This document shows, one piece after another, positions 39,893 through 60,985 of a stretch of DNA of 64,000 bases. The DNA is from a virus. Lineage: Duplodnaviria > Caudoviricetes. The notes below the pieces were generated by a model. That model saw only the letters and a list, made by a program, of their open reading frames with translations. It was not told where the DNA came from and did no database searches. The stretch is taken from the IMG/VR virus record IMGVR_UViG_3300002307_000018, positions 1 to 64,000 of that record, one strand, 5' to 3'. A program made the position numbers and the translations under genes. Every line of letters begins with the position of its first letter. The first letter of the stretch is position 1.

Positions 39893-40201
39893 ATGAATAT
39901 CGATACCATCAAGAAGACCAGCAGAGCAAAATATCTACACTCTTTGGCCAAACTCTCAGCAAAAGAAAATCATGAGGCTCAGTTATTACTGACTCAATAC
40001 GGTGGCACATTCAAGGTCACTCCAGAACTGATTTCATTTCTTGCAGTCGAACATCTAGGCGTTAAGACAATAATCTTAGATATCTTTGATAATCCCATTC
40101 AAGTTGATCGTGTTTGTATGCTGCATATGTGTATCGATCTGTACAATCTGGTCATGCAGTCATGGCTTGATGCAACTAACGAGATCAACAGTAAACGATG
40201 A
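39893..40201 (+). CDS. Hypothetical protein, first gene of the tailoring cluster
   Basis: ORF preceded by TAAGTA-N5-ATG and coupled to the next gene. Confidence 0.65.
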   Translation: MNIDTIKKTSRAKYLHSLAKLSAKENHEAQLLLTQYGGTFKVTPELISFLAVEHLGVKTIILDIFDNPIQVDRVCMLHMCIDLYNLVMQSWLDATNEINSKR

Positions 40202-41013
40202 GTAAAGGCGTACTACTATTCGCACGAGATACCGAAACACGCTCGTACACCAATATGGCTGCTTACTGTGCTAAGCGAGTCAACCAATATCTTAAACTTC
40301 CAGTAGCATTGGTAACTGACATTGATGCCGTAGTTGACGAAGCAATTTACGATCATGTTATACGAGTATCATCAGAAACACAGTCACAAAATCGCAAGAT
40401 GTCTGAACTCACGCAAGTCGAACGTTGGCGCAACTTCAATCGCTATCAAGCATACAACTTATCTCCATATACTGAAACAATCTTAATGGATACCGACTAT
40501 ATAGTCAACTCAACAAGACTGTTACATTTGTTTGATATGAATCAACCGTTCATGTGTCACAAACGCAGAATATATTTGGGCAAAGAGAAATTTTCTGAGA
40601 TTGAATCATTTGGGCGTGACAATGATATGTATTGGGCAACTGTAGTATATTTCAAACGATCATCTGAGGCTGAATCTATATTCAATATGATGCAGATGAT
40701 TCAAGAGAACTATGATCATTATTCAAAAATATACAGATTCAGTACCAGTACATTCAGAAATGACTTTGCAATTTCAATTGCCATCAATGCGGTATATGGA
40801 CATATCATGACGCCTGAGGTTGAGATACCATGGCCACTTATGAACGTAGAGTTTACCACTGATGTCAAGAAACTAAATCAAGACTCATATGAATTAAACT
40901 TTGAGCGTGTGATTGATCAAGACAAGAAGAAATTTAAGATCACAACTTACAGACAAGACTTACACATCTTGAACAAAGACGCATTATTCACCATCATTGA
41001 GAACGATACATGA
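40198..41013 (+). CDS. GT-A fold glycosyltransferase (GT8-like)
   Basis: KGVLLFA...LSPYTETILMDTDY (DxD motif)...RNDFAISIA. Confidence 0.7.
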   Translation: MSKGVLLFARDTETRSYTNMAAYCAKRVNQYLKLPVALVTDIDAVVDEAIYDHVIRVSSETQSQNRKMSELTQVERWRNFNRYQAYNLSPYTETILMDTDYIVNSTRLLHLFDMNQPFMCHKRRIYLGKEKFSEIESFGRDNDMYWATVVYFKRSSEAESIFNMMQMIQENYDHYSKIYRFSTSTFRNDFAISIAINAVYGHIMTPEVEIPWPLMNVEFTTDVKKLNQDSYELNFERVIDQDKKKFKITTYRQDLHILNKDALFTIIENDT

Positions 41014-41783
41014 CCGAAGGATATGTCATTTATGCACTCAACACAGCAGACGTAGACTATGAATGCTGCGCCAGTGTATTGGCCAAATCTCTCAAAGCAG
41101 TAGGCGATACTAGACCCGTTACGATTCTTACTCGCAAAACACTGCTGTGGGATTCAGTCAGCAATCTGACACACGGACCCTATGCCGATGATTGGCAAGT
41201 ATTCTATCGTTCACCCTATGATAGAACGTTCAAGCTTGAAGCTGATATGATTGTCACACGACCTCTAGACAGTTGGTGGACCCTGCTTAAACATCGTGAA
41301 CTACATATCGCACAAGGTTGCAGAGACTATAAGCAGCGTATGGCCACGTCTAGACACTATCGCTATAACAATGATCAGAACAACTTGCCTGATCTGTACA
41401 ACGGTATCACATACTTTACAAAGTCACTGAATGCAGAAACATTCTTTCACACAGTACGAAAGATATTCAAACATTGGACAAAGATCAATGCAAGCTTAGC
41501 ACATCCATCAATGCAACCATACGGAGACACTGATACCGTGTATGCAATTGCCGCTCAAGCACGTGGAATCGAACATTGTACAATGCCTAATGATATGATT
41601 CAGTTTGTACACATGAAGCAAAAGATAAATGGTACATTAGCAGAAGACTGGACTCGTGAATTGGTATATGAATTGGTTGATACTGACTTTAGAATCAATA
41701 CCATTTCGCAATTGTATCCAGTACACTATCATATCAAATCATTGGCAAAAGAACTAGAAGCGTATTATGATAAGCAAGTATAG
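41010..41783 (+). CDS. GT-A fold glycosyltransferase-like protein (paralogue of 40198)
   Basis: GYVIYA...SPYDRTFKLEADM...LYNGITYF...DTDTVYAIA...FVHMK. Confidence 0.65.
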   Translation: MTEGYVIYALNTADVDYECCASVLAKSLKAVGDTRPVTILTRKTLLWDSVSNLTHGPYADDWQVFYRSPYDRTFKLEADMIVTRPLDSWWTLLKHRELHIAQGCRDYKQRMATSRHYRYNNDQNNLPDLYNGITYFTKSLNAETFFHTVRKIFKHWTKINASLAHPSMQPYGDTDTVYAIAAQARGIEHCTMPNDMIQFVHMKQKINGTLAEDWTRELVYELVDTDFRINTISQLYPVHYHIKSLAKELEAYYDKQV

Positions 41784-42060
41784 ACTGTATTATAACTCAG
41801 ATGGAACGCCCAAGTACTATAGCATGGAAGAGCTAGAGGGTACATTCATATACGTAGATCAGCAAACATTCCAAAACTGCCGTTATGATATTACAGTAAT
41901 CAAGGGTGTGATAAAATCATTGAGCGAGGGCATGATATCACGATATCATAGAACTGATCAAGAAACCTCAACCACAATACGAACCGATCCTACCGATATC
42001 TTACTTGTAGTTGGCCAAACAGATAGCTATATTTTATGGGACTACACAGCTAGCATATAA
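41767..42060 (+). CDS. Hypothetical protein
   Basis: Coupled ORF, YRLYYNSDGTPKYYSMEEL. Confidence 0.6.
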   Translation: MISKYRLYYNSDGTPKYYSMEELEGTFIYVDQQTFQNCRYDITVIKGVIKSLSEGMISRYHRTDQETSTTIRTDPTDILLVVGQTDSYILWDYTASI

Positions 42061-42068
42061 ATATTCAC

Positions 42069-43016
42069 ATGAGTGAATATATAAGCACAGATGAATATGT
42101 AGATGTAGCAGACTTAGATACCATCTATCTCTCCTATGACGAGCCCAAAAAGGAAGAATTCTGGGTCAAAATCAAGAACATGATTCCGTGGGCCAAACGT
42201 GTAGATAACGTTGATGGTTCGGATGCCGCGCACAAGGCAGCGGCAGCAATGAGTGAAACTGAGCGTTTCATACTGATTGACGGTGACAACATGCCCTCAT
42301 CAAAGTTCTTTGACATGACGCTGCACTTACACGAGGGCAATAAGAATGCACAGTTTCGCTGGCGTGCGTACAATCACGTGAACGGTCTGTTCTACGGCAA
42401 CGGTGGCATGAGTTGTTGGACACGCACATTCGTCAACAATATGCGTACACACGAGAACACAGATGGCAGTGACACTACCAATATTGAGTTTTGCTTTGAC
42501 CCACAGTACTGGGCAATGCACGACTGCTATTCAACCACATACATCAATCAATCTGCCAAACAGGCATGGCGTGCAGGCTTTCGTGAGGGTGTCAAGATGT
42601 GCACCAGAAATGGAACACCTCCAGCAACTCCACAAGATTTTATGCGTTGGGTTTGGCCATCTAACTTGACAAACCTATCAATATGGCATACAATAGGAAG
42701 AGATGTTGAGAACGGTTTCTGGGCATTACACGGCGCACGTTGCGGTACACACTACTTGATGCTGAACGATAACTGGGATCATACTGATGTGCGTGACTTC
42801 AAGAAGTTAGACCTACTGTGGGAAGATCATAAGAATGACACTGATGCGTACTCGCAAAAAATCGCCACAGAACTCAATCGACATCTTGGAACAAACATAG
42901 TAGAGTTCGATAGTAAACAAAGCAAATTCTTCAAAGACTATATCAGTAAGAATTGGAAGAACACGGGGCCAATGATACGAGAAACATATGGCCCACCACA
43001 ACAGGTGACTTGGTAA
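42069..43016 (+). CDS. GT-A-like glycosyltransferase (GT2-related)
   Basis: IYLSYDEP...RVDNVDGSDAAHKAAA...RFILIDGDN (DxD)...NGLFYGNGG...AWRAGFREGVK. Preceded by TATAAATA-N5-ATG. Confidence 0.6.
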   Translation: MSEYISTDEYVDVADLDTIYLSYDEPKKEEFWVKIKNMIPWAKRVDNVDGSDAAHKAAAAMSETERFILIDGDNMPSSKFFDMTLHLHEGNKNAQFRWRAYNHVNGLFYGNGGMSCWTRTFVNNMRTHENTDGSDTTNIEFCFDPQYWAMHDCYSTTYINQSAKQAWRAGFREGVKMCTRNGTPPATPQDFMRWVWPSNLTNLSIWHTIGRDVENGFWALHGARCGTHYLMLNDNWDHTDVRDFKKLDLLWEDHKNDTDAYSQKIATELNRHLGTNIVEFDSKQSKFFKDYISKNWKNTGPMIRETYGPPQQVTW

Positions 43017-44302
43017 TGATAGATAAAAATAACAAAAGCTTTTGTGCTGTACCATTTGTAAGCACAATGATTAACTCCGATACAACGGTAAGATACTGCT
43101 GTATGGTCAAGGGCGCACACAATAAGATCAAGAAGCCTGACGGCACATTCTACACTTGCAAAGATGACTTTATCAAAGAAGCTTGGAACTCGCAAGACAT
43201 GAAAGACATCAGATTGGCAATGATCGATGGTAAAAAGATCGAAGGTTGTAGTGTGTGCTATGAGCAAGAAGCGAACGGTCGCACAAGCAACAGACAGCAC
43301 TCAATACAAGAGTGGTCGTGGCGTCTTGGCAATGAAGGTCTAAACAAGTTAGTAGCAGAAGCAGTTGATAACAACGGTCACGTAGAAAGTGAACCAGTAT
43401 ACTTAGACTTACGCTTGGGCAACTTGTGCAATCTTAAATGTCGCATGTGCAACCCGTGGAATTCGAGTCAGATTGTCAAAGAGCACGAAAGCTTAGCACA
43501 AAACCCAGAGTACAGCGAAGTATGGCGCAAGACATTTGGTAAGTTCCCTATCACAGTTATGGATGATCAGCAATGGTTTGATCATGATATCATGTGGGAT
43601 CAAGTGATCTCGCTGATACCCAAACTCAAAAAGGTATACATGACAGGCGGCGAACCCACGCTGATCAAGAACAACTTTAAGTTTATGCAAGCGTGTATTG
43701 ATCAGGGGCGCACTGACATTGTTATGTTCTTTAATACCAACTGTACCAACATCAACAAACAATTCTTGAACTTGATTTCACAATTCAAGCAAGTCAACAT
43801 CAATGCATCAATGGATGGTATTGGTATTATCAATGAATATATTCGTGCACCAAGTGATTGGAAGCTGATATCAGAGAACATTGAAAAGCTGGCACAAATG
43901 CCAAATGTCAATCTTGGTGTGACACCTACCATTCAAGTGTACAACGTGTTTGACATTGTGAACATGTTAGAGTGGGTAGATGCACTGAACACTAAGTACA
44001 ACAAGAAAATCTTTGTTGACTTCTTGGTCAATCATCATCCGCATCATCTAGCTGTTAGAATCTTAGACGATGAGTTGCGTAAGACTGCACTAGACATGAT
44101 CATGAACTATAAAGATGAAAGCAAGCATACTCATGACACTAGAAATTCGCTCAAAGGTATCATTGGTCTGCTACAGCAGTCACGAGTCAATGATTGGGCA
44201 GAGCAACTCAACAGATTCAAAGTGTATACCAATGCACTAGATGCGGAACGTGGCCAGTCTATTGCTGATATTGATTCACGACTGGCGGCACTATGTCACT
44301 AA
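43016..44302 (+). CDS. Radical SAM enzyme with N-terminal Twitch/SPASM-like Cys cluster
   Basis: FCAVPF...YCC...CSVC, then CNLKCRMC and TGGEP. Start placed at the TAATG overlap, 43016. Confidence 0.9.
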   Translation: MIDKNNKSFCAVPFVSTMINSDTTVRYCCMVKGAHNKIKKPDGTFYTCKDDFIKEAWNSQDMKDIRLAMIDGKKIEGCSVCYEQEANGRTSNRQHSIQEWSWRLGNEGLNKLVAEAVDNNGHVESEPVYLDLRLGNLCNLKCRMCNPWNSSQIVKEHESLAQNPEYSEVWRKTFGKFPITVMDDQQWFDHDIMWDQVISLIPKLKKVYMTGGEPTLIKNNFKFMQACIDQGRTDIVMFFNTNCTNINKQFLNLISQFKQVNINASMDGIGIINEYIRAPSDWKLISENIEKLAQMPNVNLGVTPTIQVYNVFDIVNMLEWVDALNTKYNKKIFVDFLVNHHPHHLAVRILDDELRKTALDMIMNYKDESKHTHDTRNSLKGIIGLLQQSRVNDWAEQLNRFKVYTNALDAERGQSIADIDSRLAALCH

Positions 44303-45561
44303 ATGACAAGAAGAACTTTTGCATACAGCCATTCATTCATCTTGCAAGTTGGAATGATGGAGCAGTTCCGCTATGCTGTATTGCAAGTCCAGAGCAGGGT
44401 CTGAATCTTAACAAACAAACACCTGTTGAAATATGGAACAGTGAGCAATTCAGAGCAGCTAGATTGAAATTCATTGCAGGAGAGAAATTACCGCAGTGTG
44501 CTAGCTGTTGGAAAGAAGAAGCTAGTGGCATCAAGTCACATAGAATCATTGAGAATTACATGTGGTCTAAGAAGCTGGGAGAAGAATTCTTAGAAGACTT
44601 AATTGCCAAGACTCACAGTGATGGCGCAGTAGATCATAACCCACTTACTCTTGATCTAAGACTAAGCAACGTATGCAATTTACAATGTGTAATGTGTCGC
44701 CCACGCGACTCAAGTAAATGGTTAGCTGACAGTAAGAAGCTTGGTGCTATACTAGAATCACCCAACGCTAAGTCAGACTGGCAGCACAAGTCCATATCTA
44801 TTCAGAATACCAATGTGTTTGATTGGTTCGAGCAACTGCGTACACAAGAAGCACTAGACGAGTTCATTGGTGATATCAGACACATTATCTTTGGTGGTGG
44901 TGAACCATTGCTGATCAAAGATCACGATAGATTCATTCGTCGTTTAGTAGAAACTGGTAACTCTAAGCATATCTCATTACGCTATCATACCAATGCCACA
45001 CAACTCAATGAAGAAATTCTAGAGCTATGGTCGCACTTTGAACAGGTTGAGCTATTACTATCTATCGACGATTGGGGCACACGTAATGAATACATACGCT
45101 ATCCGGCCAAGTGGGACATTATTAAACAGAATCTAGACAGACTAGACAACACACCAGACAACATTGTAGTCAATATTCTTGCATCAGTACATGCAATGAA
45201 CATATACACACTACCCGATTTTGCAATGATGATACTAAACAGCGATTGGAAAAAGATATGCGCTCGTACAGGTAAGATGATTAACGTTGGTACAGTACAC
45301 TGGCCACGTTATATGAGCACCAAGATACTACCTAAGCACGTTAAACGCAAGATCGCAGAACACTGGGCATCATTTACCCAACTCAACGAGAACAAACACT
45401 GGCGTGATAGAATCATTCCGCAAATTGAGTTTATGTTAAGTGGAGATGACAGTGTTTTATTTCCCGATTTACTAGACTATATCGAGAAGTTGGATTCTAT
45501 TAGACCAATTAAGTTCACTACTGTATACGCAGAATATTATAATATTCTAAAGAGCACATAA
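44293..45561 (+). CDS. Radical SAM enzyme with N-terminal Twitch-like domain
   Basis: FCIQPF...LCC...CASC, then CNLQCVMC and GGGEP. Confidence 0.9.
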   Translation: MSLNDKKNFCIQPFIHLASWNDGAVPLCCIASPEQGLNLNKQTPVEIWNSEQFRAARLKFIAGEKLPQCASCWKEEASGIKSHRIIENYMWSKKLGEEFLEDLIAKTHSDGAVDHNPLTLDLRLSNVCNLQCVMCRPRDSSKWLADSKKLGAILESPNAKSDWQHKSISIQNTNVFDWFEQLRTQEALDEFIGDIRHIIFGGGEPLLIKDHDRFIRRLVETGNSKHISLRYHTNATQLNEEILELWSHFEQVELLLSIDDWGTRNEYIRYPAKWDIIKQNLDRLDNTPDNIVVNILASVHAMNIYTLPDFAMMILNSDWKKICARTGKMINVGTVHWPRYMSTKILPKHVKRKIAEHWASFTQLNENKHWRDRIIPQIEFMLSGDDSVLFPDLLDYIEKLDSIRPIKFTTVYAEYYNILKST

Positions 45562-46586
45562 TGGATTTAATAAAACAAAACAAATTCATTGAGGTAGTGG
45601 TCGAGAATGATACCAAAGAAACAATGACTCTAATCTATAGACTATATGATCTAGACATTGTTGATCGTTGGACTGCACTGATCGACAAGAACAATGCAAT
45701 GAAGCACACACTACGCTACAACTATAGAAGAATATTGAGCGATGGTGATATTCTTGATAGATTCATTGAGTTTAAAGACAACATTGATTATATTAACAGT
45801 CACTATGACAGAGTGTTAGCTGATATTGTTAGCATTGATCACTTGTTGAATAATCAAACTATACTAAATGATCTACACGAAGAATACGAAATATACGGTG
45901 ATCGATTGGATAGATTGATCAAGATCAGATACTTTAATAATCCCAAAGCTCATCCAGATTTTTACGCAGAGCCATGGCCTGGTGATCGTAATGAGAATGA
46001 CAAAGTATTACACGAAGCGTTCTTACTATTGAACGAACAAATACATAACTTTGAAGCCTTATTCAAGAACTGGGACAATCGCTTAAAGACACTGTGTACT
46101 TGCTTGACAGATTTTGTACCAGCAGGTCTGCATGAAGATTTAAAGCCAGAAGATTACTTTTTATTTACATGTGATCATGAATGGGGCACAATGTGCTTGG
46201 GATATAATACCTTAGGCAAACACTGGTCATCAGTGTATCGTGACAACGACATTGATGTAGTCAAGCGTGGGGCAGTTAGACCACAGCATAGATTTGCAGC
46301 AGAGTTTTATATGATCTTTGGAATTCGTCAAAGTGCCACCAATACTAGAATGCAATTGTACAAGTGGTGGATGGATAATAATATCAGCGAGTACTGTGAT
46401 CCTAGTATGAAATTAGAAGACTTTGCATTAGGATTCATTCCAGTAGCCAAACTATATAGCTATACAATTAAAAATGTCACTACAAAGATATCATTAGACA
46501 TGACAAGAGAAGAAAAGCAAGCTTGGAATCAAAATATGTGGAGTAAATTTAGCACTGTTATTAGCGTGAGAACAATAGAAAAATGA
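45561..46586 (+). CDS. Hypothetical protein (341 aa)
   Basis: Coupled ORF; no motif confidently recognised. Confidence 0.7.
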   Translation: MDLIKQNKFIEVVVENDTKETMTLIYRLYDLDIVDRWTALIDKNNAMKHTLRYNYRRILSDGDILDRFIEFKDNIDYINSHYDRVLADIVSIDHLLNNQTILNDLHEEYEIYGDRLDRLIKIRYFNNPKAHPDFYAEPWPGDRNENDKVLHEAFLLLNEQIHNFEALFKNWDNRLKTLCTCLTDFVPAGLHEDLKPEDYFLFTCDHEWGTMCLGYNTLGKHWSSVYRDNDIDVVKRGAVRPQHRFAAEFYMIFGIRQSATNTRMQLYKWWMDNNISEYCDPSMKLEDFALGFIPVAKLYSYTIKNVTTKISLDMTREEKQAWNQNMWSKFSTVISVRTIEK

Positions 46587-47536
46587 AAAAGATTATTAAA
46601 GTACAACAACGACCAACTGCACCATTGAATCTAACATGGGTGATTAACAATATCTGTACAAATCAGTGTAGTTATTGTCCACCCGGTTTACACAACGGTC
46701 AAAATCATAACTATGATTGGGAAAATGCACGTAGATTCTTTATTGATTTATTCAAGCGTTATTCTAAGATACACTGTAGCGTAGCTGGTGGTGAGCCATC
46801 ACTTAGTCCGTTCTTTCGTGAGATCGTAGAGATATTCAAAGACAATAACAGTACCATTGGTATTACCTCTAACGCAGCTAAGCCTGTTAGTTACTGGTCT
46901 GATATCTCTAAGTATCTAAACTATATTTGCTTTAGCTGGCATGCCGAATTTATAGACGAAAAGTTTGAAGAAAAGGTCTTAGCTTCTGCTAACAATTGCC
47001 CTGTCACTGTACGTATCATGATGAATACCAGTCATTGGGAACGCAGTGTAGCAGAGTATAATCGTTGGGTCAATAATCCATTAGTGCTAGTAGAACCAGT
47101 TAGAATATTGAACTGGAACTTTGGCGCACAGAACCCATCTACTTACACTTACAACGAAGAACAACTTGAGTGGTTCAAGAATACAGTACCACCCTCTAGA
47201 TATCTAAAACATTTAGATCATCTTAATATTGTTCATCCTGATGTTGCAAGTGCTGATTTTTACTTTGAAGACAATACAGTAGAATCATTTCCCAATATCG
47301 TTAGCTTAATCAACAACGGACAAACAAACTTTAATGGCTACAAATGTGATGCAGGTATAAAGGCATTGTTCATTGATTGGCGTGGAAAGATATACTTGGC
47401 CAATTGTTTGATTGACGGATTCATTGGTTCAATTAACGAGCCTGATACTATTAAGTGGCCTACTGGACCAATCACATGTAACAAGAACATTTGTCATTGT
47501 GCCAGTGATGTGATTATTAGTAAATGGAAAGAGTAA
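46583..47536 (+). CDS. Radical SAM enzyme with C-terminal Cys-rich (Twitch-like) domain
   Basis: CTNQCSYC, AGGEP; C-terminal CDAG...ANC...CNKNICHC. Confidence 0.9.
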   Translation: MKKIIKVQQRPTAPLNLTWVINNICTNQCSYCPPGLHNGQNHNYDWENARRFFIDLFKRYSKIHCSVAGGEPSLSPFFREIVEIFKDNNSTIGITSNAAKPVSYWSDISKYLNYICFSWHAEFIDEKFEEKVLASANNCPVTVRIMMNTSHWERSVAEYNRWVNNPLVLVEPVRILNWNFGAQNPSTYTYNEEQLEWFKNTVPPSRYLKHLDHLNIVHPDVASADFYFEDNTVESFPNIVSLINNGQTNFNGYKCDAGIKALFIDWRGKIYLANCLIDGFIGSINEPDTIKWPTGPITCNKNICHCASDVIISKWKE

Positions 47537-48201
47537 TGCATCAATTTCCACAAGAGATCATTGATTTTCGTGACATGAACGCACAGTGTACATCACCTGT
47601 GCATGTTACCTTTCGTGCAAGCAAAGATGATCCTGAGTGTTGCTATTATCCAATAAAATTTGATTTCGATACTGAGTTACTGTTAAAAGAATGTCAAGCA
47701 GCAGATGATCTATATGTTGATCACAGAGCTAACGACAAGAAAGGAAGCTATGGTCACAGTGGTTGGAAATCATTAACGCTGCATGGGCTTGACAAGCACA
47801 AGACTGAGCATTATGTACAGTACGGATTTAACACACTAGAAGAGGCTAACTATCATTGGACTGATGCTTGTGATCGTCTGCCCAATCTAACACTGTTCTT
47901 GAAATCACTTCCATTCAAACTATTTGATCGTGTACGCATTATGCGATTAGAGGCAGGAGGTTACATAATGCCGCACTCGGATAATAAATTTGAACGTGCG
48001 TTTTCACCCTTAAATATTGCTATCAACAATCCTACAGGCTGTGCATTTATTATGAAAAATGGTGGAGAAGTACCATTTGTAGCAGGCACAGGAATGATCT
48101 TAGATGTTGGTCGTGAGCACATTGTAGTGAATGATAGCAATACAGTTAGATATCACATTATTGCTCACGGCCATCATGCACCTGAATTTTATAAACTATG
48201 A
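47536..48201 (+). CDS. Fe(II)/2-oxoglutarate dioxygenase, Asp/Asn beta-hydroxylase (LpxO-like) family
   Basis: RVRIMRLEAGGYIMPHSD...LNIAINNP...EHIVVN...RYHII (HxD...H triad). Confidence 0.8.
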   Translation: MHQFPQEIIDFRDMNAQCTSPVHVTFRASKDDPECCYYPIKFDFDTELLLKECQAADDLYVDHRANDKKGSYGHSGWKSLTLHGLDKHKTEHYVQYGFNTLEEANYHWTDACDRLPNLTLFLKSLPFKLFDRVRIMRLEAGGYIMPHSDNKFERAFSPLNIAINNPTGCAFIMKNGGEVPFVAGTGMILDVGREHIVVNDSNTVRYHIIAHGHHAPEFYKL

Positions 48202-52663: not shown

Positions 52664-53475
52664 GAAGAATCTACGCATACGGAGATAGTTTTATTGCCAA
52701 TGAATCTAAGATTTATCCTGAATGGGCACAGATACTATCGAATAATTTGAATACTTCTTTATTTAATAAAGGAGTTAGCGCAGGCAGCACAGAAAATGCA
52801 ATGACTAAGTTGTACAATGACATGGACAATAATAACATTACTGACAATGACATTGTATTATTTCAGACCAGTACTCCGGGAAGACTTCATTTTTTATTTC
52901 AACGTGATAGACCTGAAACGGCATCATTGTATACTCAAGATTCACACAGTGACTTTCATCTTCCAGAACATACTTGGTATCGTGAAAATAAACAGTACAT
53001 CAATTGGTATCTAAGAAACTTTGACATTAACTTAATGTCATTGAATCATTATTGCTATCTAAACACTGTTATTAACTTTGCCGTATCTAACCCTAATATC
53101 AAGATAGTAGTACTAAGCAATATATTTACTAACAATCATGCTAAGTTACCCAAATCACCCACAAATTGTATCATGATTCCAATTGAGTTGCACATGATTA
53201 GTAAGAATGAATTTGTCAATCCTAAGCATGATCATAATGATTGGCTTAAACATACAGTATATGACACTAGAATAAATCATCTAAGCAACAAGAATCTCGC
53301 ACTGTTGGCAGAGTTGATAGAAGAATCCATTGACACAGGCAGAACCGATAACTTTAGTTATAGTCGCTTTGTGCAACGTATATTTGAACCAATACGCACT
53401 GACAGTGACTATATAAGATACGTCGAACAGGGCCATTTACATTATGTACCTGACTGGTTGAAATTTAAAAAGTAA
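52660..53475 (+). CDS. SGNH/GDSL-like protein
   Basis: IYAYGDSF, NKGVSAGS, DTRINHLS. Confidence 0.75.
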   Translation: MRRIYAYGDSFIANESKIYPEWAQILSNNLNTSLFNKGVSAGSTENAMTKLYNDMDNNNITDNDIVLFQTSTPGRLHFLFQRDRPETASLYTQDSHSDFHLPEHTWYRENKQYINWYLRNFDINLMSLNHYCYLNTVINFAVSNPNIKIVVLSNIFTNNHAKLPKSPTNCIMIPIELHMISKNEFVNPKHDHNDWLKHTVYDTRINHLSNKNLALLAELIEESIDTGRTDNFSYSRFVQRIFEPIRTDSDYIRYVEQGHLHYVPDWLKFKK

Positions 53476-53605: not shown

Positions 53606-54442
53606 ATGAGAACGTTACACATTTACGGTGATAGTTATGCATCTAATCATGAAGTGGATGATTTAGTCCATAGTTCTAATAGTAGACAGTGTTGGACTAA
53701 TTTGGTTGCCGATAATCTAAAGATGCGACAGAATAATCATGCACGTGCGGGAACCAGTACATCATACAGCTTATTCAAATTTCAGCAGTGTATCAATGAC
53801 ATACTGCCCAACGATGTAGTAATATTTTGCGTTAGTTCCTTTGAAAGACTGACATTTATTCATCAACTTGAGTTTCCAGATACCGCAGCAACATTGACTT
53901 ATGAGGAATTGCCAAAGTCAATTGCTCATATGCGTAGACATGTATGGTATAAAGAGAATGCCACTCAATTAGAATGGTTTGCAAGAAACGCAGACGCTGA
54001 TAATCAAAAATTATCACACGAGGGATATATTCACATTATTAGAAACTTTGCCGAGTGCAATCCAAATGTCACAGTATTACTAATGTCATTGGACCATTAT
54101 AACATTAAGTTTCCAATGAGTATACCACGTAACTTGTTGATTCCAGCAACCACATTGTATTCGATATCAGCAACTGAGACTAAGATTAGTTATCGTGAAT
54201 TTACTAAGTATACTGGCTATGATCCTAGAATAAATCACTATAGTGTCAATAATTCTAGAATATTTGCAAACTTAGTAACTGAAGTTTTTCAAACTAATAG
54301 TGTAGAAAATTTAACATCGGATAAATTTGAATCAAACATTTATACAAGACCAATCGATACTGTAGAGGAGTATGATCGTCATATCGTGGCTGGTCATTTA
54401 TTAGATCGAATCTCCGTTAGAAAAATACTTAAAAAATTATAA
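53606..54442 (+). CDS. SGNH/GDSL-like protein (paralogue of 52660)
   Basis: LHIYGDSY, NHARAGTS, DPRINHYS. Confidence 0.75.
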   Translation: MRTLHIYGDSYASNHEVDDLVHSSNSRQCWTNLVADNLKMRQNNHARAGTSTSYSLFKFQQCINDILPNDVVIFCVSSFERLTFIHQLEFPDTAATLTYEELPKSIAHMRRHVWYKENATQLEWFARNADADNQKLSHEGYIHIIRNFAECNPNVTVLLMSLDHYNIKFPMSIPRNLLIPATTLYSISATETKISYREFTKYTGYDPRINHYSVNNSRIFANLVTEVFQTNSVENLTSDKFESNIYTRPIDTVEEYDRHIVAGHLLDRISVRKILKKL

Positions 54443-55404
54443 TGAACTATATTGGATTATCATGTGGATTTCACAATGCGTCATTGGCTGTAGTCAATAA
54501 AGATGGAGAGATAGTCTATACAGCACGTAGCAGTGAGTTTAGCGGTATACCTAATGACAAAAACTTAGACAGTAGACTAGTACTTAAAGCATTAGAGTAC
54601 TGTGACAATGAGTATGAACTACATTACTATGAGAATCCTTTACTCAAGTACTTACGACAATTACGAGCAGGTGAACGACCTAGTATTAAAACAATCAGTG
54701 CCAGTTATATGATCGGGCGACACAATCATAAACTGTTAAACAATAAACCAATACATACACACAAACATCATTTAACACATGCGGCTGGGGGATTTCAAAC
54801 ATCCACATTTGATCGTGCCACAGTAGTAGTGATTGACGCTATAGGCGAGTTCGACACAATCACAATATGGAGTGCAGAATATAAAAACAATCAAGCACAG
54901 TATCGAAGATTATACAGTCAAACGTATCCCGACAGTATTGGTTTGTTCTATAGTGCAATGACAAAACAAATTGGTCTTACGCCATTACAGGATGAATACA
55001 AGTTGATGAAGTATTCTGAGCATGGCAATAGATATAATGATTGTACATCAATATTGCTGGGCTCAGTTGTAAACAGTGTACGTGACTGTACATTATATGA
55101 TAACTTACACATTGGTTTGAATAAATCTGTTAGTGATTCACTGTTACAGTACTCAGTAGTAGACGTGGCAGCCAGTACTCAGTATGTGACCGAACAACTT
55201 ATTTACAGTGTCATGCAGCGAGCCAAATCATTTAACTTCAGCAACAATTTAGTATACAGTGGCGGCGTTGCATTAAATAGTATAGCAAACAATAATCTCT
55301 CAGACTTTTTCGACAATGTATGGATTATGCCAGACCCAAGCGATAGTGGCTCTAGTATTGGAGCCTGTGCATTGGCTTACGGCAGTAGATTGACATCACT
55401 ATAA
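54442..55404 (+). CDS. Carbamoyltransferase (CmcH/NodU/TobZ) N-terminal Kae1-like domain only
   Basis: GLSCGFHNAS, HHLTHAAGGF, DAIGEFDT, SIGLFYSA, SGGVALN, PDPSDSGSSIG. Stops about 10 aa later, with no C-terminal YrdC-like domain. Confidence 0.85.
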   Translation: MNYIGLSCGFHNASLAVVNKDGEIVYTARSSEFSGIPNDKNLDSRLVLKALEYCDNEYELHYYENPLLKYLRQLRAGERPSIKTISASYMIGRHNHKLLNNKPIHTHKHHLTHAAGGFQTSTFDRATVVVIDAIGEFDTITIWSAEYKNNQAQYRRLYSQTYPDSIGLFYSAMTKQIGLTPLQDEYKLMKYSEHGNRYNDCTSILLGSVVNSVRDCTLYDNLHIGLNKSVSDSLLQYSVVDVAASTQYVTEQLIYSVMQRAKSFNFSNNLVYSGGVALNSIANNNLSDFFDNVWIMPDPSDSGSSIGACALAYGSRLTSL

Positions 55405-55408
55405 TAAT

Positions 55409-56488
55409 ATGACAAAGAAACTTATTCAAGTACGTACACATTTAAACTCAATGACTGTTACATGGGTCATGAACAACATTTGCACCAATCACTGTGACTA
55501 TTGCCCACCTGTATTACACAAGGGTAGTAATCACAACTATAGCTGGGATCGTGCCAAAGAGTTTATGGAACGATTGTTTAAACGATATCTGCGTGTTAAT
55601 CTTAGCTTAAGTGGGGGCGAACCTACACTGTCTCCTTTTTTGCCTGAGCTAGTCAAGATGTTTAATGATCGTAAACAGGCAATAGGTATTACCACTAACG
55701 GAGCCAGAACAGTTAGATACTACGAAGAACTTGCCCCTATGCTTAGCTTTCTTACGTTCTCTTATCATCCTAGTTATCCAGAAGAGCAATTGATTGAAAA
55801 GATTCGTGCGTGTGCACCACACACAGTAGTACTGACACGTATCATGATGGACAGCAGACACTGGGATCGTGCTGTTGCTATGTACAATGAGTGCTTAAAT
55901 AATCTAGAGCATACTGCCGTTGAAGCGGTTATAATTCTGTCTGATATTAGTGATCGTCATGTAGGCAATGAGTATACGTCTGAACAATTGCAATGGATCA
56001 AAGATCATGAGTATACTGTATATCGTAGCAATGCTGATTATCAAAAGAATCCTAAGTGGAAAAAGTTCGACACATTGTCTTCATTTTGGTACAATGATGG
56101 ATCAATTAAGACTGATGATCCAAATGAATTAGTAAATCGTGGTGAAAATGACTTTCGTGGGTGGGCATGTAACATAGGTATCGAAAGTCTTTGTATACAT
56201 TACAATGGTTGGGTAGGTAAAGCTACTTGTGGAGTAGGACAAAACATGTTTCATATTGATGATCATGCTGCTCATCCGCTACCAGAACGAGCAGAGATAT
56301 GTACACAAGCTGTATGTGCTTGTGGTACTGATATTAGAATCTCAAAGGTACCAATCATGGACAAAGATGATCCCTATGTACTGGCAAGAACCGTAGTCAA
56401 TGAGCCTAAGAGCGAAGAAGAGTACAATAAGAAATACTATGACGAGAATGGTCGAGTAATTATACCTATTAGGCCTGTAACACAATGA
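55409..56488 (+). CDS. Radical SAM enzyme with C-terminal Cys-rich domain (paralogue of 46583)
   Basis: CTNHCDYC, SGGEP; C-terminal CNIG...ATC...CTQAVCAC. Confidence 0.9.
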   Translation: MTKKLIQVRTHLNSMTVTWVMNNICTNHCDYCPPVLHKGSNHNYSWDRAKEFMERLFKRYLRVNLSLSGGEPTLSPFLPELVKMFNDRKQAIGITTNGARTVRYYEELAPMLSFLTFSYHPSYPEEQLIEKIRACAPHTVVLTRIMMDSRHWDRAVAMYNECLNNLEHTAVEAVIILSDISDRHVGNEYTSEQLQWIKDHEYTVYRSNADYQKNPKWKKFDTLSSFWYNDGSIKTDDPNELVNRGENDFRGWACNIGIESLCIHYNGWVGKATCGVGQNMFHIDDHAAHPLPERAEICTQAVCACGTDIRISKVPIMDKDDPYVLARTVVNEPKSEEEYNKKYYDENGRVIIPIRPVTQ

Positions 56489-57699
56489 TCAATGATAAAC
56501 TGTGCGTGATACCATGGATTCATATGAACGTAGAAAGCAATGGTAGAGTTATACCATGCTGCATGACTGCTGCTCACAATTACACTGTAGGTGATGCTAA
56601 CACTCAAACTATAGAACAGTTATGGAACAATGACTCAATGACTGCACTACGCAAAGATATGATCAATGGCATTGAACCACGTATCTGTAACAAGTGTTTT
56701 GATCAAGAGCGAGTATTGGGCCATAGTAGTAGAACACATAACAATGATTTTTTTAAAAAGTCGTACGAGAATATTCCTAATATTACCAACAGTGACGGTA
56801 CAGTCATCGAACTAAAACTCAAGTACTGGGACTTTAGATTTTCAAACATATGTAATTTTAAGTGTCGTAGCTGTGGGCCACGATACAGCTCAGCATGGGT
56901 GCCAGATGCCAATAAAATGAAATTGTCATCGCAAGATAAGGTATGGCATATTGAGCAAGTAGATAATAAACCTAACTATGAGTTCTTAGAACAACACATA
57001 GACTATGTAGAAAAGATTTACTTTGCTGGTGGCGAACCACTTATGATGCAAGAACATTGGGATACACTGGAACTAATAGACAAACACAATCGATATGATG
57101 TTCGTGTACTGTATAATACCAATTTATCTGTGCTGTCATACAACAAACGTAATGTCTTAGACTATTGGAAAAATTGGAAAAAAGGAAACCTACATATTTC
57201 TGTCAGCATTGATGAGATCGACGAACGAGCAGAATACGTACGCAGTGGTACCAATTGGTCTAAGTTAGAAGACAATCTTGTAACAGTTAATAAGCTTGAC
57301 AATGTTATACTGTGGCCAAGCTTTACTGTTAGTATATACAATGTGTTTAGAATTCCAATGATCATTGATAGACTGATTGCTCTCAATGTCATTACTAAAG
57401 AATTCAATTATAAAAATTTTCATATTAACGTACTAACTGGCCCAAATCAATTAAGAATCAATGTGCTGCCAACTGAGTTTCGTCGTGAAATTTTAAAACA
57501 GTACAGTGACTATTGCATATCTTATAAGCAACGTTACAATGTTGATCTTGGATCTGTGTTTGATTATATCATTGATCATCTCAAGCAGCCACAGAATGAA
57601 CCAATGGTCAAGAATTTTATTAAATATTCCAATACACTAGATGAAATTAGAAATGAAAGTACGTTTACTGTGATTCCAGAGCTACAGTGCTTACTGTAA
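56485..57699 (+). CDS. Radical SAM enzyme with N-terminal Twitch-like domain
   Basis: LCVIPW...PCC...CNKC, then CNFKCRSC and AGGEP. Confidence 0.9.
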   Translation: MINDKLCVIPWIHMNVESNGRVIPCCMTAAHNYTVGDANTQTIEQLWNNDSMTALRKDMINGIEPRICNKCFDQERVLGHSSRTHNNDFFKKSYENIPNITNSDGTVIELKLKYWDFRFSNICNFKCRSCGPRYSSAWVPDANKMKLSSQDKVWHIEQVDNKPNYEFLEQHIDYVEKIYFAGGEPLMMQEHWDTLELIDKHNRYDVRVLYNTNLSVLSYNKRNVLDYWKNWKKGNLHISVSIDEIDERAEYVRSGTNWSKLEDNLVTVNKLDNVILWPSFTVSIYNVFRIPMIIDRLIALNVITKEFNYKNFHINVLTGPNQLRINVLPTEFRREILKQYSDYCISYKQRYNVDLGSVFDYIIDHLKQPQNEPMVKNFIKYSNTLDEIRNESTFTVIPELQCLL

Positions 57700-58326
57700 T
57701 TACTTGCGCCATATGCTCATGTAACGAGTGTATTCATTGGTATGATATTGCCCACTGAATATTGGCCCACGAACTTGATTCATCATCTCAAAATCTTTAA
57801 GATCAGTACTACAACGAACGTGTTCTAAACACGCAAAGAAGTTATTGCCCTGCACAACGACCAATGATCCTGGTGTAATGTTACGATACCAAGTATCGTA
57901 CTGCTGTTGTGTAACATGTTCGCTTGAAGTGTTGATTACTACATCACTAGACATACCCCAGTCATAGTCGTAGCTACACATATCAGCAGTTACAGCTTTG
58001 AAACGCCAACCATCCATTTCATACTGTTTGTTTATCGTGTCTGCTATATTTTCACACCATGGATCAATGTCGATTGAGCGAATCTTCTTGACACGAATAT
58101 CACTGTCATCTTGAAACATCATTGACGCTAGTACACCAATCCAACCTCCAAAGATGTATATATTCACTGGTCTGTAGTGTAACACTGTTGATAATTGTTT
58201 AACCAGCCAAGCTTTGCTTTCAAGCTGTCCAGACCACATACCATCTAAAGCACGAGTGCGTTCGTTGTCGGGTAAGTTACGTATGGCGTTAAACCAATAT
58301 CTTAGATCATCAATGTGTATTTTCAT
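57700..58326 (-). CDS. Class I SAM-dependent methyltransferase-like protein
   Basis: IYIFGGWIG, SIDID, TADM, DVVINTSSEH. Start at 58326 after TATAAATA-N5. Confidence 0.7.
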   Translation of the reverse strand: MKIHIDDLRYWFNAIRNLPDNERTRALDGMWSGQLESKAWLVKQLSTVLHYRPVNIYIFGGWIGVLASMMFQDDSDIRVKKIRSIDIDPWCENIADTINKQYEMDGWRFKAVTADMCSYDYDWGMSSDVVINTSSEHVTQQQYDTWYRNITPGSLVVVQGNNFFACLEHVRCSTDLKDFEMMNQVRGPIFSGQYHTNEYTRYMSIWRK

Positions 58327-58366
58327 AAAAATATTTATACAGATATAGTATATAGTAAATATTACT

Positions 58367-60985
58367 ATGAACACAATTGATGATACCGTTTGGAAAATAT
58401 TAGGTCCCGTAGACTTAGATAAATTTGATTTTAATTGGACACCGCCTGAGAATAGTGAACCCTATATCTATGTATGGGGTAACAAGTGGAACGATTGTAG
58501 TACTGATCCAATGATCGAATATCATCAACCAGAGGGAACAAGCAGAGTGTATATGAATGAACCAGTTGAACTATTGGTAGAAGAAGATCGCTGGAAGATA
58601 CTGATCGTCGGGGCTACAATGGATAGAACATGGCGCCCTAATCCCTATGATCCACCCTATATACATGTATTTGGTAACAAGTGGAACAACGCGACAATCG
58701 AACCTACAATTGAGTACTATGTAGAGGGCGCCACTGAGTGCAAGTACGTTGACAATATTATAGCAGAGTTACCACAGTGTCACGACAACTGGACACGATT
58801 GGGCTTAGAATCGTTTGACTATAGTTGGAGACCTAACCCATATGCTCCTCCGCAAACGTATGTGTGGTGGGAAAATAACGGCCCAATATATACAGTACCA
58901 GATTCAATTGGTACAGTGTACATGGATCGTGATCCGGCAACTATTCTACCAGCCCCACGCTACTATGTAGAAACAACCTTAGAAGACTTGATTGCTCAAC
59001 ACCCAGACGAAGTATTTTGGGCACTTAACAAAGAACTTAAGTATGAACATTTTGACTTTTCATGGAGATCACCAAGAGAAATTCATGATCATCTTAATGC
59101 TTTTGGTAACGAAACTAGCAAAGACACTGGTACATATTATGTTAATGCGCCCTCTTGGTTAGCAGGTCATCGTGATGTTAACTATATCAATGATGTTAGC
59201 TTTAATATTAGCACAGAACTTGATATGTTTTATATCAATCGTGGAGATGACTCACGATTCGCGGCACTTAAACAACGATTCCCGAATCTACAAAAGACAC
59301 GATACTTAAACAGTTGGGTCGATACCATTTTACGTTGCTTGAAAAAGGCCACTACTAAGCATGTTTGGATTCTAAGTAGCGACTGTGACTACACTGACTT
59401 TAAGTTTGACTTTTATCCGTCATCATGGCAATCAAATATGATTCATGTATTTGGTACACAATGGTCGCACTGGGGCAATACCTATATGGTCAATCGTGAC
59501 ACGTTTGAGCAAACTGCTAATGGTATAAAAGTCATTGAACACTGTAACAATATCAATCATGTACGTTCTAAACGTGCTAAATTGGTTGACTGTGCGTATG
59601 ACATACTGTACATAGATCATGGTAGCAAATCAACAGCACTAGAACAATTGCAAAGCTTAGCTACACCGCATAATATTATTACACTTAAGTACAGTGGTAG
59701 TTACTTAGACACGCTACTATCGTATGTTAATTCATTGAGCGAATATGAAATTCCTAACGAATCGTTTGTATGGATATGCAGCGGCTTATGTGATTACAGT
59801 AACTTTGATTTTAGCTATGCGTGTGATCCATTTGAGCGTGAGCAATTGCATGTATTCGCTAGTGAGTATCAACGTGCTAAACAAAAATTTGGAGATACGT
59901 TCTTACTGAACTTAGCTGAGTTCTATCGTGAGCGTTATCATTTAGAATCATTAGATGAGTATTCTAAAAGTGTGTCGTATATTGAACATGTTACAGTACC
60001 TAGATGGGACCATCCAGTGATATATCATGATCATGACAGTCAAGCTACGGCTATTTGTGAGAACAAGAATATTGATTATCCATATTATGAATTGATCAAT
60101 CGTAGTGCTGCACCCACTACTAATAGACCATTGGTGCCCAATATGTGGGACTCCTATGAGTCTCCTATTATAGTGCCCTCTACTGGAGCTACTAGAATTT
60201 TGGTGCCTGTAAGTACAACCGAATTCATATTCAATGAAGTGTATGACTATCATAATATTGAATTCGTAGACAATAAAGATGAATCACAGCCGCTTGACAT
60301 TGTATTCTTTTCCAATGGTGAGCCTGCCGCCAATGATAATTATGCACGACTACAGCAGATTATAATCGACAAACAGTTGCCCAACAGATTGGTACGTGTA
60401 GATGGAGTAGTCGGGCGTGTAGCAAGTCAACATGCGGCTGCTCGTTCCAGCAATACTGAGTGGTACTTCTTGGTCAACTGTAAGCTAAGCGTGAACACTG
60501 ACTTTGACTTTAGCTGGCAACCTGATAGACTGCAACAACCTAAACATTATATCTTTGTTGCTACTAACCCAGTGAATCACTTAGAGTACGGTCATCAAGC
60601 TATTGTGGCTAACAACAGAACCTTGACACTGAATACTGAGGTAGACGGTCTAGACTTTACCATGAGTAGCTTACATCAAGTAGTTAATAAGAATTGTGGT
60701 GTTGCAATATACAATACTGATCAATGGACTACATGGCGTACTGCGTTTAGAGAAGTCATCAAGCTTAAATACGCAAGTGATATAACCAATAATCGAGAAA
60801 CAAATCACAGACTAAAAACATGGTTATCAGTTGGTGACGCAGAGTATGGGCAATATAGTACTGGCGGAGCCTACGATGCTATTGAGTACTACGAAAGCGT
60901 AGAGGGCAATCTAGATGATCTAATGAACAGTTACGACTGGGAATGGATTCAAACTTACTATAAAGCCAAGTACGCTAACACGTAA
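58367..60985 (+). CDS. Multi-module glycosyltransferase-like protein (C-terminal module homologous to 42069)
   Basis: Seven FDFSW.P...HVF-like motifs; C-terminal RVDGVVGRVASQHAAA...NPVNHLEYG...WRTAFREVIKL. Preceded by TAAATA-N5-ATG. Confidence 0.6.
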   Translation: MNTIDDTVWKILGPVDLDKFDFNWTPPENSEPYIYVWGNKWNDCSTDPMIEYHQPEGTSRVYMNEPVELLVEEDRWKILIVGATMDRTWRPNPYDPPYIHVFGNKWNNATIEPTIEYYVEGATECKYVDNIIAELPQCHDNWTRLGLESFDYSWRPNPYAPPQTYVWWENNGPIYTVPDSIGTVYMDRDPATILPAPRYYVETTLEDLIAQHPDEVFWALNKELKYEHFDFSWRSPREIHDHLNAFGNETSKDTGTYYVNAPSWLAGHRDVNYINDVSFNISTELDMFYINRGDDSRFAALKQRFPNLQKTRYLNSWVDTILRCLKKATTKHVWILSSDCDYTDFKFDFYPSSWQSNMIHVFGTQWSHWGNTYMVNRDTFEQTANGIKVIEHCNNINHVRSKRAKLVDCAYDILYIDHGSKSTALEQLQSLATPHNIITLKYSGSYLDTLLSYVNSLSEYEIPNESFVWICSGLCDYSNFDFSYACDPFEREQLHVFASEYQRAKQKFGDTFLLNLAEFYRERYHLESLDEYSKSVSYIEHVTVPRWDHPVIYHDHDSQATAICENKNIDYPYYELINRSAAPTTNRPLVPNMWDSYESPIIVPSTGATRILVPVSTTEFIFNEVYDYHNIEFVDNKDESQPLDIVFFSNGEPAANDNYARLQQIIIDKQLPNRLVRVDGVVGRVASQHAAARSSNTEWYFLVNCKLSVNTDFDFSWQPDRLQQPKHYIFVATNPVNHLEYGHQAIVANNRTLTLNTEVDGLDFTMSSLHQVVNKNCGVAIYNTDQWTTWRTAFREVIKLKYASDITNNRETNHRLKTWLSVGDAEYGQYSTGGAYDAIEYYESVEGNLDDLMNSYDWEWIQTYYKAKYANT

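Follow-up and report, generated by a model that had tools for sequence, protein, structure and literature searches.

A gene cluster behind the tail-fibre genes

We analysed the first 64 kb (64,000 nucleotides, hereafter the window) of a single 264,637-bp IMG/VR virus record, IMGVR_UViG_3300002307_000018, whose completeness is estimated at 74%. Positions 39893-60985 of the window hold a cluster of 22 open reading frames (ORFs), 20 of them on the plus strand, and most junctions overlap by 1-40 nt. A preliminary description of this DNA had proposed here a pathway for virion glycosylation and decoration, placed directly after tail proteins. The coordinates of the cluster were borne out, with the ORFs in place and tightly packed, and so was its setting, the proteins encoded upstream (37031, 37970 and 38932; genes are named by coordinate, with c for the minus strand) being fibre-like. 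Relatives were collected from IMG/VR with a profile of the family of 42069, a cluster protein with a glycosyltransferase-like (GT-like) fold. This gave at least 589 confirmed contig matches, and the best 80 loci were used for all counts out of 80 given below. A single radical SAM (S-adenosylmethionine) sequence used as query gave no confirmed relatives, and an alignment query was required. The fibre genes and the genes for small core and GT-fold proteins are the following:

36378..36995, plus strand: conserved fibre-module protein, 205 aa; no Pfam match; homologue upstream of the core in 63/80 contigs
37031..37948, plus strand: short tail fibre with a C-terminal intramolecular-chaperone (IMC) domain (Peptidase_G2/IMC match); 76/80 contigs
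37970..38908, plus strand: Ser/Thr/Gly-rich fibre-like protein, candidate acceptor; paralogue of 38932 (49% identity)
38932..39855, plus strand: Ser/Thr/Gly-rich fibre-like protein, candidate acceptor; ARYFFNAGG and SWGTPT motifs conserved (alignment A6)
39893..40201, plus strand: small core protein, 102 aa; 78/80 contigs and Ralstonia phage RsoM2USA; no family match
40198..41013, plus strand: GT8-like (glycogenin-fold) glycosyltransferase with a DTD motif, from model and Foldseek; 80/80 contigs
41010..41783, plus strand: GT8-like paralogue of 40198 (profile A4, 229.6 bits; phrog_1903); 80/80 contigs
41767..42060, plus strand: small core protein, 97 aa; 48/80 contigs
42069..43016, plus strand: GT-A-like-fold protein with a DGD motif and a helical C-terminal domain; 80/80 viral contigs; steady partner of N-terminal-twitch (N-twitch) radical SAM proteins
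58367..60985, plus strand: 872 aa; FDFSW-P repeats, then two degenerate domains of the 42069 type without DxD
61021..62739, plus strand: long Asn/Thr-rich fibre with an IMC domain at the end of the cluster; structural-protein PHROGs; termini as in 37031

The same order, 36378, 37031, 37970/38932, 39893, 40198, 41010, (41767) and 42069, followed by N-twitch radical SAM genes, was found in 80/80 contigs, which is the outcome of the co-occurrence check across related phages that the preliminary description had called for. The 37970/38932 family lies directly 5' of the core in every related contig examined. Between one and seven N-twitch genes per contig were counted within a 10-kb flank, four or five being commonest, and the genes that follow this array vary from contig to contig: the types of 45561, 47524, 48198, 52660 and of an adenylating enzyme of the ANL group were each seen in 1/80 contigs. 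The constant order from the fibre genes to 42069 and the rarity of the downstream types thus divide the locus into a 3-kb invariant core and an 18-kb fast-changing accessory array, a division that the preliminary description had missed, although the single cluster that it drew is real. Two metagenomic relatives followed in detail have the same layout, one with a row of at least ten radical SAM genes, the other with a full-length carbamoyltransferase and two hydroxylases. As six of the nine radical SAM domains of the genome fall within 15 kb and the layout recurs in all 80 contigs, the clustering is not due to chance.

The AlphaFold2 (AF2) model of 40198 has a predicted local distance difference test score (pLDDT) of 93, and Foldseek matched it to glycogenin with an E-value of 6.7e-7 and a probability of 1.0, among 353 matches at E<=0.001. 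These include glycogenin, UGGT, GlyE, LARGE1, COLGALT1 and the Skp1 galactosyltransferase, the best of them being mostly enzymes that glycosylate proteins or protein-linked glycans. Searched against PDB sequences, the family profile returned glycogenins only, at an E-value of 0.05, and neither 40198 nor 41010 matched any Pfam family, GT8 included, even at E<=10. The DTD motif lies at residues 98-100, with D100 invariant across 63 sequences, and the model has an additional C-terminal beta-sheet domain. Known GT8 protein glycosyltransferases such as glycogenin and GlyE of S. pneumoniae have the same fold and DxD placement as 40198 and 41010, at 12-15% identity.

The AF2 model of 42069 (pLDDT 87.7) aligns to GT-A enzymes over residues 10-160, with a VIA Z-score of 10.2 to B4GALNT1 (141 residues aligned, root-mean-square deviation 3.1) and similar scores to other GT-A enzymes. 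The DGD motif is found in most full-length members of the family; it reads DAD in two and is lost from the domains of the 58367 type, and the family profile gave a chance match only against PDB sequences. In 58367, about seven repeats of the form FDFSW(R/Q)P...(I/Y)(H/Y)VFG stand ahead of two 42069-like copies, in both of which DGD is replaced (VNC); a possible role for this protein is to bind sugars or to serve as a scaffold without activity. The four GT-A-like proteins of the preliminary description are therefore all present, as two GT8-like proteins, one GT-A-like protein with DGD and one protein carrying two degenerate copies without DxD. Ten ORFs without a Pfam match at E<=0.01 were rescanned at E<=10 and gave nothing usable; for nine cluster ORFs there was no match even at this threshold.

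Accessory genes of the 80 relatives (ORFs of at least 60 aa) were grouped into 103 clusters and compared with Pfam; 48 families were matched, of which we inspected the 25 most frequent. Sugar families are represented by Epimerase (NAD-dependent epimerase/dehydratase), dTDP_sugar_isom (3,5-epimerase), GDP_Man_Dehyd, UDP-glucose dehydrogenase and DegT, together with the sugar C-methyltransferase domain Methyltransf_14. The census further holds DUF6071 (seven clusters), GDSL lipase, FkbM methyltransferases, B12-binding domains, AMP-binding enzymes, hydroxylases, carbamoyltransferase and Aminotran_3. Families typical of RiPPs (peptides that the ribosome makes and that are modified after translation), a leader-like precursor, a protease or an exporter were absent from the 25 most frequent families. 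The enzymes of nucleoside diphosphate (NDP)-sugar metabolism in relatives, taken with the three GT-fold genes of the core, make a sugar pathway the best reading of the module.

The window holds ten copies of the heptamer ATAAATA, which forms the core of the T4 late promoter. All ten stand 6-28 nt before a start codon, a placement that requires three starts (51535, 58326 and 63374) to be moved to an ATG internal to the longest ORF. Copies are found ahead of the baseplate wedge gene, of fibres 37031, 38932 and 61021, and of the genes 42069, 51578, the ANL gene, 57700c and the kinase-like 62736c. The copies before fibre and cluster genes and before 62736c are these:

36997 and 37001, plus strand: ATAAATA before fibre 37031, late motif
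38908, plus strand: ATAAATA before fibre-like 38932, late motif
42057..42063, plus strand: (T)ATAAATA, late-promoter motif, ends 5 nt ahead of the 42069 ATG
51541-51547, minus strand: ATAAATA, late-promoter motif, 5 nt before ATG 51535 of the ANL gene
51566..51572, plus strand: ATAAATA, late-promoter motif, ends 5 nt ahead of the 51578 ATG
58332-58338, minus strand: ATAAATA, late-promoter motif, 5 nt before ATG 58326 of 57700c
60992, plus strand: ATAAATA before fibre 61021, late motif
63380-63386, minus strand: ATAAATA, late-promoter motif, 5 nt before ATG 63374 of the kinase-like 62736c

The gap from motif to ATG is exactly 5 nt for five non-structural genes and 17-27 nt for structural genes, and the 5-nt gap predicts leaderless late transcripts. 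The exact sequence TATAAATA is not enriched across the window (3 found, 3.3 expected); the ATAAATA signal lies in its placement before starts and not in its frequency. A scan of 36000-55900 for sigma-70-like promoters and terminators revealed no enrichment and no sites in intergenic gaps. The late-type promoters that had been noted ahead of cluster genes are thus supported by the motif before 42069, 51578, the ANL gene and 57700c.

Radical SAM enzymes and the accessory array

Six radical SAM genes had been counted in the preliminary description, and all six are confirmed, each with a CxxxCxxC motif:

43016..44302, plus strand: N-twitch radical SAM (NF033640); CNLKCRMC; start at ATG 43016
44293..45561, plus strand: N-twitch radical SAM (NF033640); 299 homologues found
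46583..47536, plus strand: radical SAM of a second type; PF04055, 33.4 bits; CTNQCSYC
51578..52663, plus strand: divergent N-twitch radical SAM; NF033640, 174.5 bits; CNAACIMC
55409..56488, plus strand: radical SAM of the second type; PF04055, 44 bits; CTNHCDYC; 15/80 contigs
56485..57699, plus strand: N-twitch radical SAM (NF033640); SPASM match at residues 7-71

Four of them belong to NF033640 (NCBIfam N_Twi_rSAM, twitch domain-containing radical SAM protein), a family whose members carry their Cys-rich twitch domain N-terminal to the radical SAM core. With a curated cut-off of 170 bits over the whole protein, 43016 (ORF 42953) scores 362.2, 44293 scores 361.6, 56485 scores 358.7 and 51578 scores 174.5 bits. 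In alignment A1, C28/C29, C69, C72, C128, C132 and C135 are invariant and C10 is nearly so. The other two, 46583 and 55409, are paralogues (37% identical) distinct from the N-twitch type. The best match of the N-twitch proteins among PDB sequences is SkfB (E 2.8e-11), and BtrN and HygY are not among the matches. No RRE or PqqD domain was found on any of the six, Pfam and NCBIfam giving only SPASM, Radical_SAM and Fer4_12, and no NF033640 member scored above the cut-off in 14 model genomes.

BtrN and HygY are twitch radical SAM enzymes of carbohydrate pathways, built of the core and one auxiliary cluster domain, which act on C-H bonds of sugars or cyclitols. They have in common with NF033640 the radical SAM core and the twitch domain, which is C-terminal in BtrN and HygY and N-terminal here. 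They provide the best available mechanistic analogy for the N-twitch proteins, and by this analogy we infer that the radical SAM enzymes of the module may be sugar editors. Elsewhere in the genome record, a fifth NF033640 gene lies at about 101.8 kb (C1:101751-102866), and a second group of genes for radical SAM and Asp/Asn-hydroxylase-family proteins at about 204-234 kb (C1:203868-204098, 221630-222073, 231807-232067 and 233371-233874), so tailoring enzymes occur beyond this cluster.

The remaining genes of the array are as follows:

45561..46586, plus strand: 341-aa accessory protein; no family match; 1/80 contigs
47524..48201, plus strand: Fe(II)/2-oxoglutarate Asp/Asn beta-hydroxylase-family oxygenase; PF05118, 36.8 bits; HSD...H triad
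48198..49562, plus strand: 454-aa hydroxylase partner; homologues fused to Asp_Arg_Hydrox in Bdellovibrionota
49523..49783, plus strand: DUF2061 small membrane protein; PF09834, 49.4 bits
49780..50484, plus strand: possible SGNH-like protein; GTS...HPT motifs only, weak Kelch match; 3/80 contigs
50456..51535, minus strand: compact ANL adenylating enzyme; PF00501; YTSGTTGDSK motif; likely start ATG 51535
52660..53475, plus strand: DUF6071/SGNH-like protein; YGDS motif; 32% identical to 53606
53606..54442, plus strand: DUF6071/SGNH-like paralogue; YGDS motif
54442..55404, plus strand: Kae1-like half of a NodU/TobZ-type carbamoyltransferase; PF02543, 117.5 bits, residues 94-309
57700..58326, minus strand: Rossmann-like protein, putative methyltransferase; start ATG 58326; recurrent partner of the 42069 family

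Several assignments of the preliminary description agree with these matches, namely the hydroxylase (HxD...H in the sequence of 47524), the small membrane protein, the ANL enzyme (95.7 bits, over profile positions 166-358 only) and the carbamoyltransferase, as the Kae1-like N-domain. The ORFs of 47524 and 48198 overlap by 4 nt, and a hydroxylase is fused to a 48198-like domain in Bdellovibrionota proteins of 733-808 aa (L043:3165-5588, L079:3710-5929 and L057:2383-4581), which suggests that 47524 and 48198 are two halves of one functional unit; apart from Asp_Arg_Hydrox, 48198-like proteins matched no Pfam family. The carbamoyltransferase ORF stops at 320 aa with the next gene 4 nt on, and no C-domain (Carbam_trans_C, the YrdC-like part that makes carbamoyl-adenylate) was found, whereas relatives carry a full-length protein of 487-605 aa with both domains. 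Two further assignments are less secure. The three putative SGNH proteins have block-I GDS/GTS motifs and a lead to DUF6071, the nearest named Atlas clusters being DUF6071 with Lipase_GDSL in 11% of one cluster, but none has a Pfam match of its own. The putative methyltransferase 57700c, related proteins of which occur in RsoM2USA and at 18 loci from the genome-collection scan described below, has only a Rossmann-like motif; 57700c and four homologues gave no Pfam match, and its profile no PDB match.

Relatives and genome setting

Among 50,697 deposited phage records, the GT core is found only in Ralstonia phage RsoM2USA. Its ORF355-346 encode a fibre-like protein, a small ORF, two GT8-like proteins, a small ORF, a 42069-like protein, one N-twitch radical SAM, a short 42069-like protein and a 57700-like protein; the module proteins are 27-37% identical to those of the window, and ORF346-355 are all annotated as hypothetical protein. 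Compared with the window, RsoM2USA has one radical SAM gene instead of six and is without hydroxylase, ANL, carbamoyltransferase and SGNH-like genes. Just upstream of the module, ORF361, ORF359 and ORF356 were identified as virion proteins by mass spectrometry, in a study that identified gel bands only and does not mention the module (PMC8504454). A tblastn comparison of its sister phage XacN1 with 42069, 41010 and the N-twitch radical SAM gave no hits. Of the fibre-like protein, XacN1 shares only the N-terminal ~90 aa, which annotated tail fibres of PA5oct-type phages also contain, and the RsoM2USA homologue of 37970/38932 likewise matches annotated tail fibres over its N-terminal ~90 aa. Megablast of the whole 21-kb cluster against the same records gave no match.

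The other deposited carriers of N-twitch proteins are two KVP40-like Vibrio phages and the marine virus fragment MH319727. In the Vibrio phages K566 and K567, four N-twitch genes stand outside the structural regions, flanked by PnuC-like and NAMPT genes (locus L083, 158-171 kb of the K566 record), and the 29-kb stretch read there contains no other match to cluster proteins, GT-fold proteins included. In the literature searched, the sole earlier mention is by Nishimura et al. (2017, PMC5332604), who described an environmental viral genome, marine and T4-like, that carries 12 radical SAM genes; it is likewise a radical-SAM-rich T4-like aquatic virus, and these genes were read only as Fe-S-related metabolism, with no link to fibres or GTs described.

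Cellular relatives were sought in one genome per prokaryotic species, and 202 N-twitch relatives were obtained, of which the best 78 loci were analysed. These are overwhelmingly from Bdellovibrionota metagenome-assembled genomes (MAGs), with some contigs of 0.9-3 Mb and often several genes per genome, arrayed; housekeeping genes in the flanks show that the loci are chromosomal. Minor holders are Elusimicrobiota, Actinomycetota, Bacteroidota and Paenibacillus (loci L005-L082). Counted over 82 loci (the 78 bacterial or archaeal ones and the phage contigs L001-L004), 42069-like genes occur in 17 (13 without L001-L004), 57700-like genes in 18, carbamoyltransferases in 10, hydroxylases in 7 and radical SAM genes of the second type (46583/55409 homologues) in 32-33. 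The Bdellovibrionota loci contained no fibre-protein homologue. In a FastTree phylogeny, phage and cellular N-twitch sequences interleave in several old paralogue classes, and the pair 43016/44293 groups with an adjacent Bdellovibrionia pair; paired genes matching it lie in the Bdellovibrionia loci L007 and L009. One locus, L053 (PBLX01000002.1, a 42.7-kb contig of a 'Legionellales' MAG), carries the entire phage core (homologues of 40198, 41010, 42069 and 58367, a carbamoyltransferase and an array of radical SAM genes) and is probably a phage contig mis-binned into a bacterial MAG.

Genes of the window outside the cluster code for a late sigma factor of the T4 type, nucleases resembling SbcCD, and baseplate hub and wedge proteins, the wedge protein being ~32% identical to its counterparts in the RaK2/GAP32 group of jumbo myophages. 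A 355-kb contig encodes a radical SAM protein 99% identical to 44293, so that a fuller genome of the same phage probably exists. Between the baseplate wedge gene and the fibre genes lies an ORF of 4117 aa (23842-36195), and its RsoM2USA counterpart is ORF361, a confirmed virion protein of >288 kDa. The fibres 37031 and 61021 have N- and C-termini in common, in addition to the Peptidase_G2/IMC chaperone domain. In 61021, 23 of 59 Asn residues fall within NxS/T, compared with 12.7% of Asn in the cluster enzymes and about twice the prediction from Ser/Thr content, an excess that is suggestive but confounded by the S/T-rich repeat composition (VNAT/NIT-type repeats); no GT41-type N-glycosyltransferase was seen alongside this sequon-rich fibre. 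A complex prediction for 38932 and 40198 returned no answer (score 0.00) and speaks neither for nor against binding.

The genome record holds a single ThyA, scoring 349.6 bits as thymidylate synthase against an equivalog cut-off of 108, and no second, hydroxymethylase-like paralogue. At C1:73017-75212 this canonical gene is followed by a 114-aa ORF and by a gene resembling extended-SDR NDP-sugar 4,6-dehydratases/epimerases. The latter lies 13 kb downstream of the cluster, and its best match, dTDP-glucose dehydratase at 113 bits, is below the cut-off.

Candidate function of the module

We propose, at about even confidence, that the cluster is a late-expressed cytoplasmic cassette which builds and edits a glycan as part of the tail-fibre module, in a lineage of aquatic and soil jumbo myophages. 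The GT-fold enzymes would take NDP-sugars from the host (made by the phage in some relatives) to attach and extend a short glycan. Each paralogue class of radical SAM enzymes would then edit one sugar position by H-atom abstraction, through epimerisation, oxidation, deoxygenation or C-C/C-methyl chemistry, and the glycan may be finished by hydroxylation, O-acylation or de-acylation, acyl-adenylate transfer and carbamoylation. The acceptor would most likely be the S/T-rich fibre proteins encoded directly upstream, and a fast-changing array would diversify the fibre surface, with effects on receptor binding, shielding or stability. The sugar pathway is supported by the three GT-fold core genes, the fibre synteny in 80/80 contigs and in RsoM2USA, the late motifs, and the NDP-sugar enzymes of relatives; what speaks for a fibre acceptor is the strictness of the synteny, together with the late motifs and with fold matches of 40198 that are protein-directed enzymes. 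The virion glycan of the preliminary description is thus partly supported, as a sugar-handling pathway tied to the virion module, with tail or capsid as a candidate destination only.

Several points weigh against this proposal. No glycan, acceptor or activity has been observed to date for any member of the module; NF033640 is without a characterised member, no paper in the literature searched names it or gives its function, and among solved structures the nearest to it in sequence, SkfB, modifies peptides. The GT-A Z-score of 42069, at ~10, is only middling, nucleotidyltransferases scoring 8-9. No sugar nucleotidyltransferase was found in the genome record, at its estimated completeness. Adjacency to fibre genes could mark a hot spot for accessory genes, and because the toolkit occurs in Bdellovibrionota without fibre homologues, fibres cannot be its universal acceptor.

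The Bdellovibrionota loci keep an envelope target open. The cassette might remodel the host envelope late in infection, acting on the lipopolysaccharide (LPS) core, capsule or peptidoglycan precursors so as to mask the receptor, which would spare progeny from loss on debris or exclude superinfection, and the same toolkit might serve Bdellovibrionota on the prey envelope or on their own. We consider this unlikely. In its favour, N-twitch, 42069-like, 57700-like, carbamoyltransferase and hydroxylase genes stand together in Bdellovibrionota chromosomes without fibre homologues; the GT8 family also includes LPS-core transferases; the cluster encodes a DUF2061 membrane protein; and the pairing of a receptor-binding fibre with a receptor-modifying pathway would account for the synteny equally well. 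However, neither the window nor the accessory census showed a priming transferase for a lipid carrier, a flippase, a polymerase or an ABC exporter, the GT-fold proteins have no Pfam membrane family and, on reading the sequences (no transmembrane predictor was run), no hydrophobic stretch, the top fold matches of 40198 are protein and glycoprotein transferases and not of the LgtC/RfaJ type, and the core is joined to fibre genes in all 80 contigs. Literature searched on Bdellovibrio and radical SAM enzymes held nothing on function. Maturation of the RiPP type, in which the radical SAM enzymes and the hydroxylase would act directly on the fibre polypeptides (epimerisation, cross-links, Asp/Asn beta-hydroxylation) and the GT-fold proteins would be minor or a scaffold, seems to us quite improbable. 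SPASM/twitch radical SAM proteins are typically peptide maturases, as the match to SkfB recalls, PF05118 enzymes hydroxylate Asp/Asn of proteins according to the family description, and the fibres are rich in Asn, Ser and Thr. Yet the six radical SAM proteins are without PqqD/RRE, leader-peptide-like partners, proteases and exporters are not among the 25 most frequent census families, the invariant part consists of the three GT-fold genes while the hydroxylase is rare (1/80 contigs), NDP-sugar enzymes recur in relatives, and the fibre-like proteins contain only 0-3 Cys each.

Twitch radical SAM enzymes, a TobZ/NodU-type carbamoyltransferase and GTs together recall aminoglycoside pathways, and relatives carry Aminotran_3 and DegT aminotransferases. 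A diffusible pseudo-oligosaccharide or nucleoside-type small molecule made by such logic and aimed at the host or at competitors is nevertheless very unlikely: window Pfam scans and the accessory census contained no cyclitol synthase, exporter or resistance gene, late timing and a position in the structural module fit poorly, and the accessory genes vary by contig while the fibre linkage is constant. Phages also have thymidine hypermodification pathways. Post-replicative hypermodification of the phage DNA with a tailored sugar, an alternative already raised in the preliminary description, would fit the part of phage GTs and radical SAM enzymes in DNA hypermodification (Pyle et al. 2024, as cited in PMC12619734). 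We regard it as highly improbable, given one true ThyA in the genome record without a hydroxymethylase-like paralogue, late motifs, genes that sit in the fibre module and not with replication genes, and GT8 fold matches that are protein-directed enzymes.

Returning to a glycan on the fibres, the nearest parallels are the systems that glycosylate virions in mycobacteriophages and in giant viruses (PBCV-1 A64R, Mimivirus fibril clusters), where virus-encoded GT-A enzymes stand beside structural genes as they do here; PBCV-1 A64R and Mimivirus R699 are among the fold matches of 42069. We know of no radical SAM array in the mycobacteriophage, PBCV-1 or Mimivirus systems, and in comparison with them the acceptor proposed here is a candidate only. 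For mycobacteriophages, glycosylation concerns capsid and tail tube, as summarised in PMC12619734. A paper on a 'moraphage' with four core glycosyltransferase orthogroups concerns another lineage, with predicted Bacteroidota hosts, and was not used as support. Virus-encoded virion glycosylation is therefore already known, whereas an invariant GT core with a variable radical SAM array is not described in the literature searched.

A more specific and tentative proposal, which we think doubtful, is that the N-twitch paralogues edit sugars after their attachment to the fibres, by position-specific radical epimerisation, oxidation or deoxygenation in situ. If so, a few common NDP-sugars of the host would be turned into a hypervariable coat of rare sugars by which receptor binding is set or protected. 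It would amount to a new class of post-translational modification of virions with new radical SAM chemistry, common to the attack apparatus or envelope of predatory Bdellovibrionota.

The module is widespread: freshwater, marine and soil samples gave at least 589 matching IMG/VR contigs. It can occupy 5-10% of a jumbo phage genome, yet all its genes are annotated as 'hypothetical' or generic 'radical SAM'. In it, GT-fold proteins are coupled to a radical SAM family that is uncharacterised, a combination undescribed for any virus in the literature searched, and the variable array resembles an evolutionary hot spot at the end of the virion that binds the receptor. The minimal version with one radical SAM gene in the culturable phage RsoM2USA makes the acceptor, the glycan and the radical SAM reaction directly testable. 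Finally, the link to Bdellovibrionota suggests a toolkit common to two kinds of predators of Gram-negative cells.

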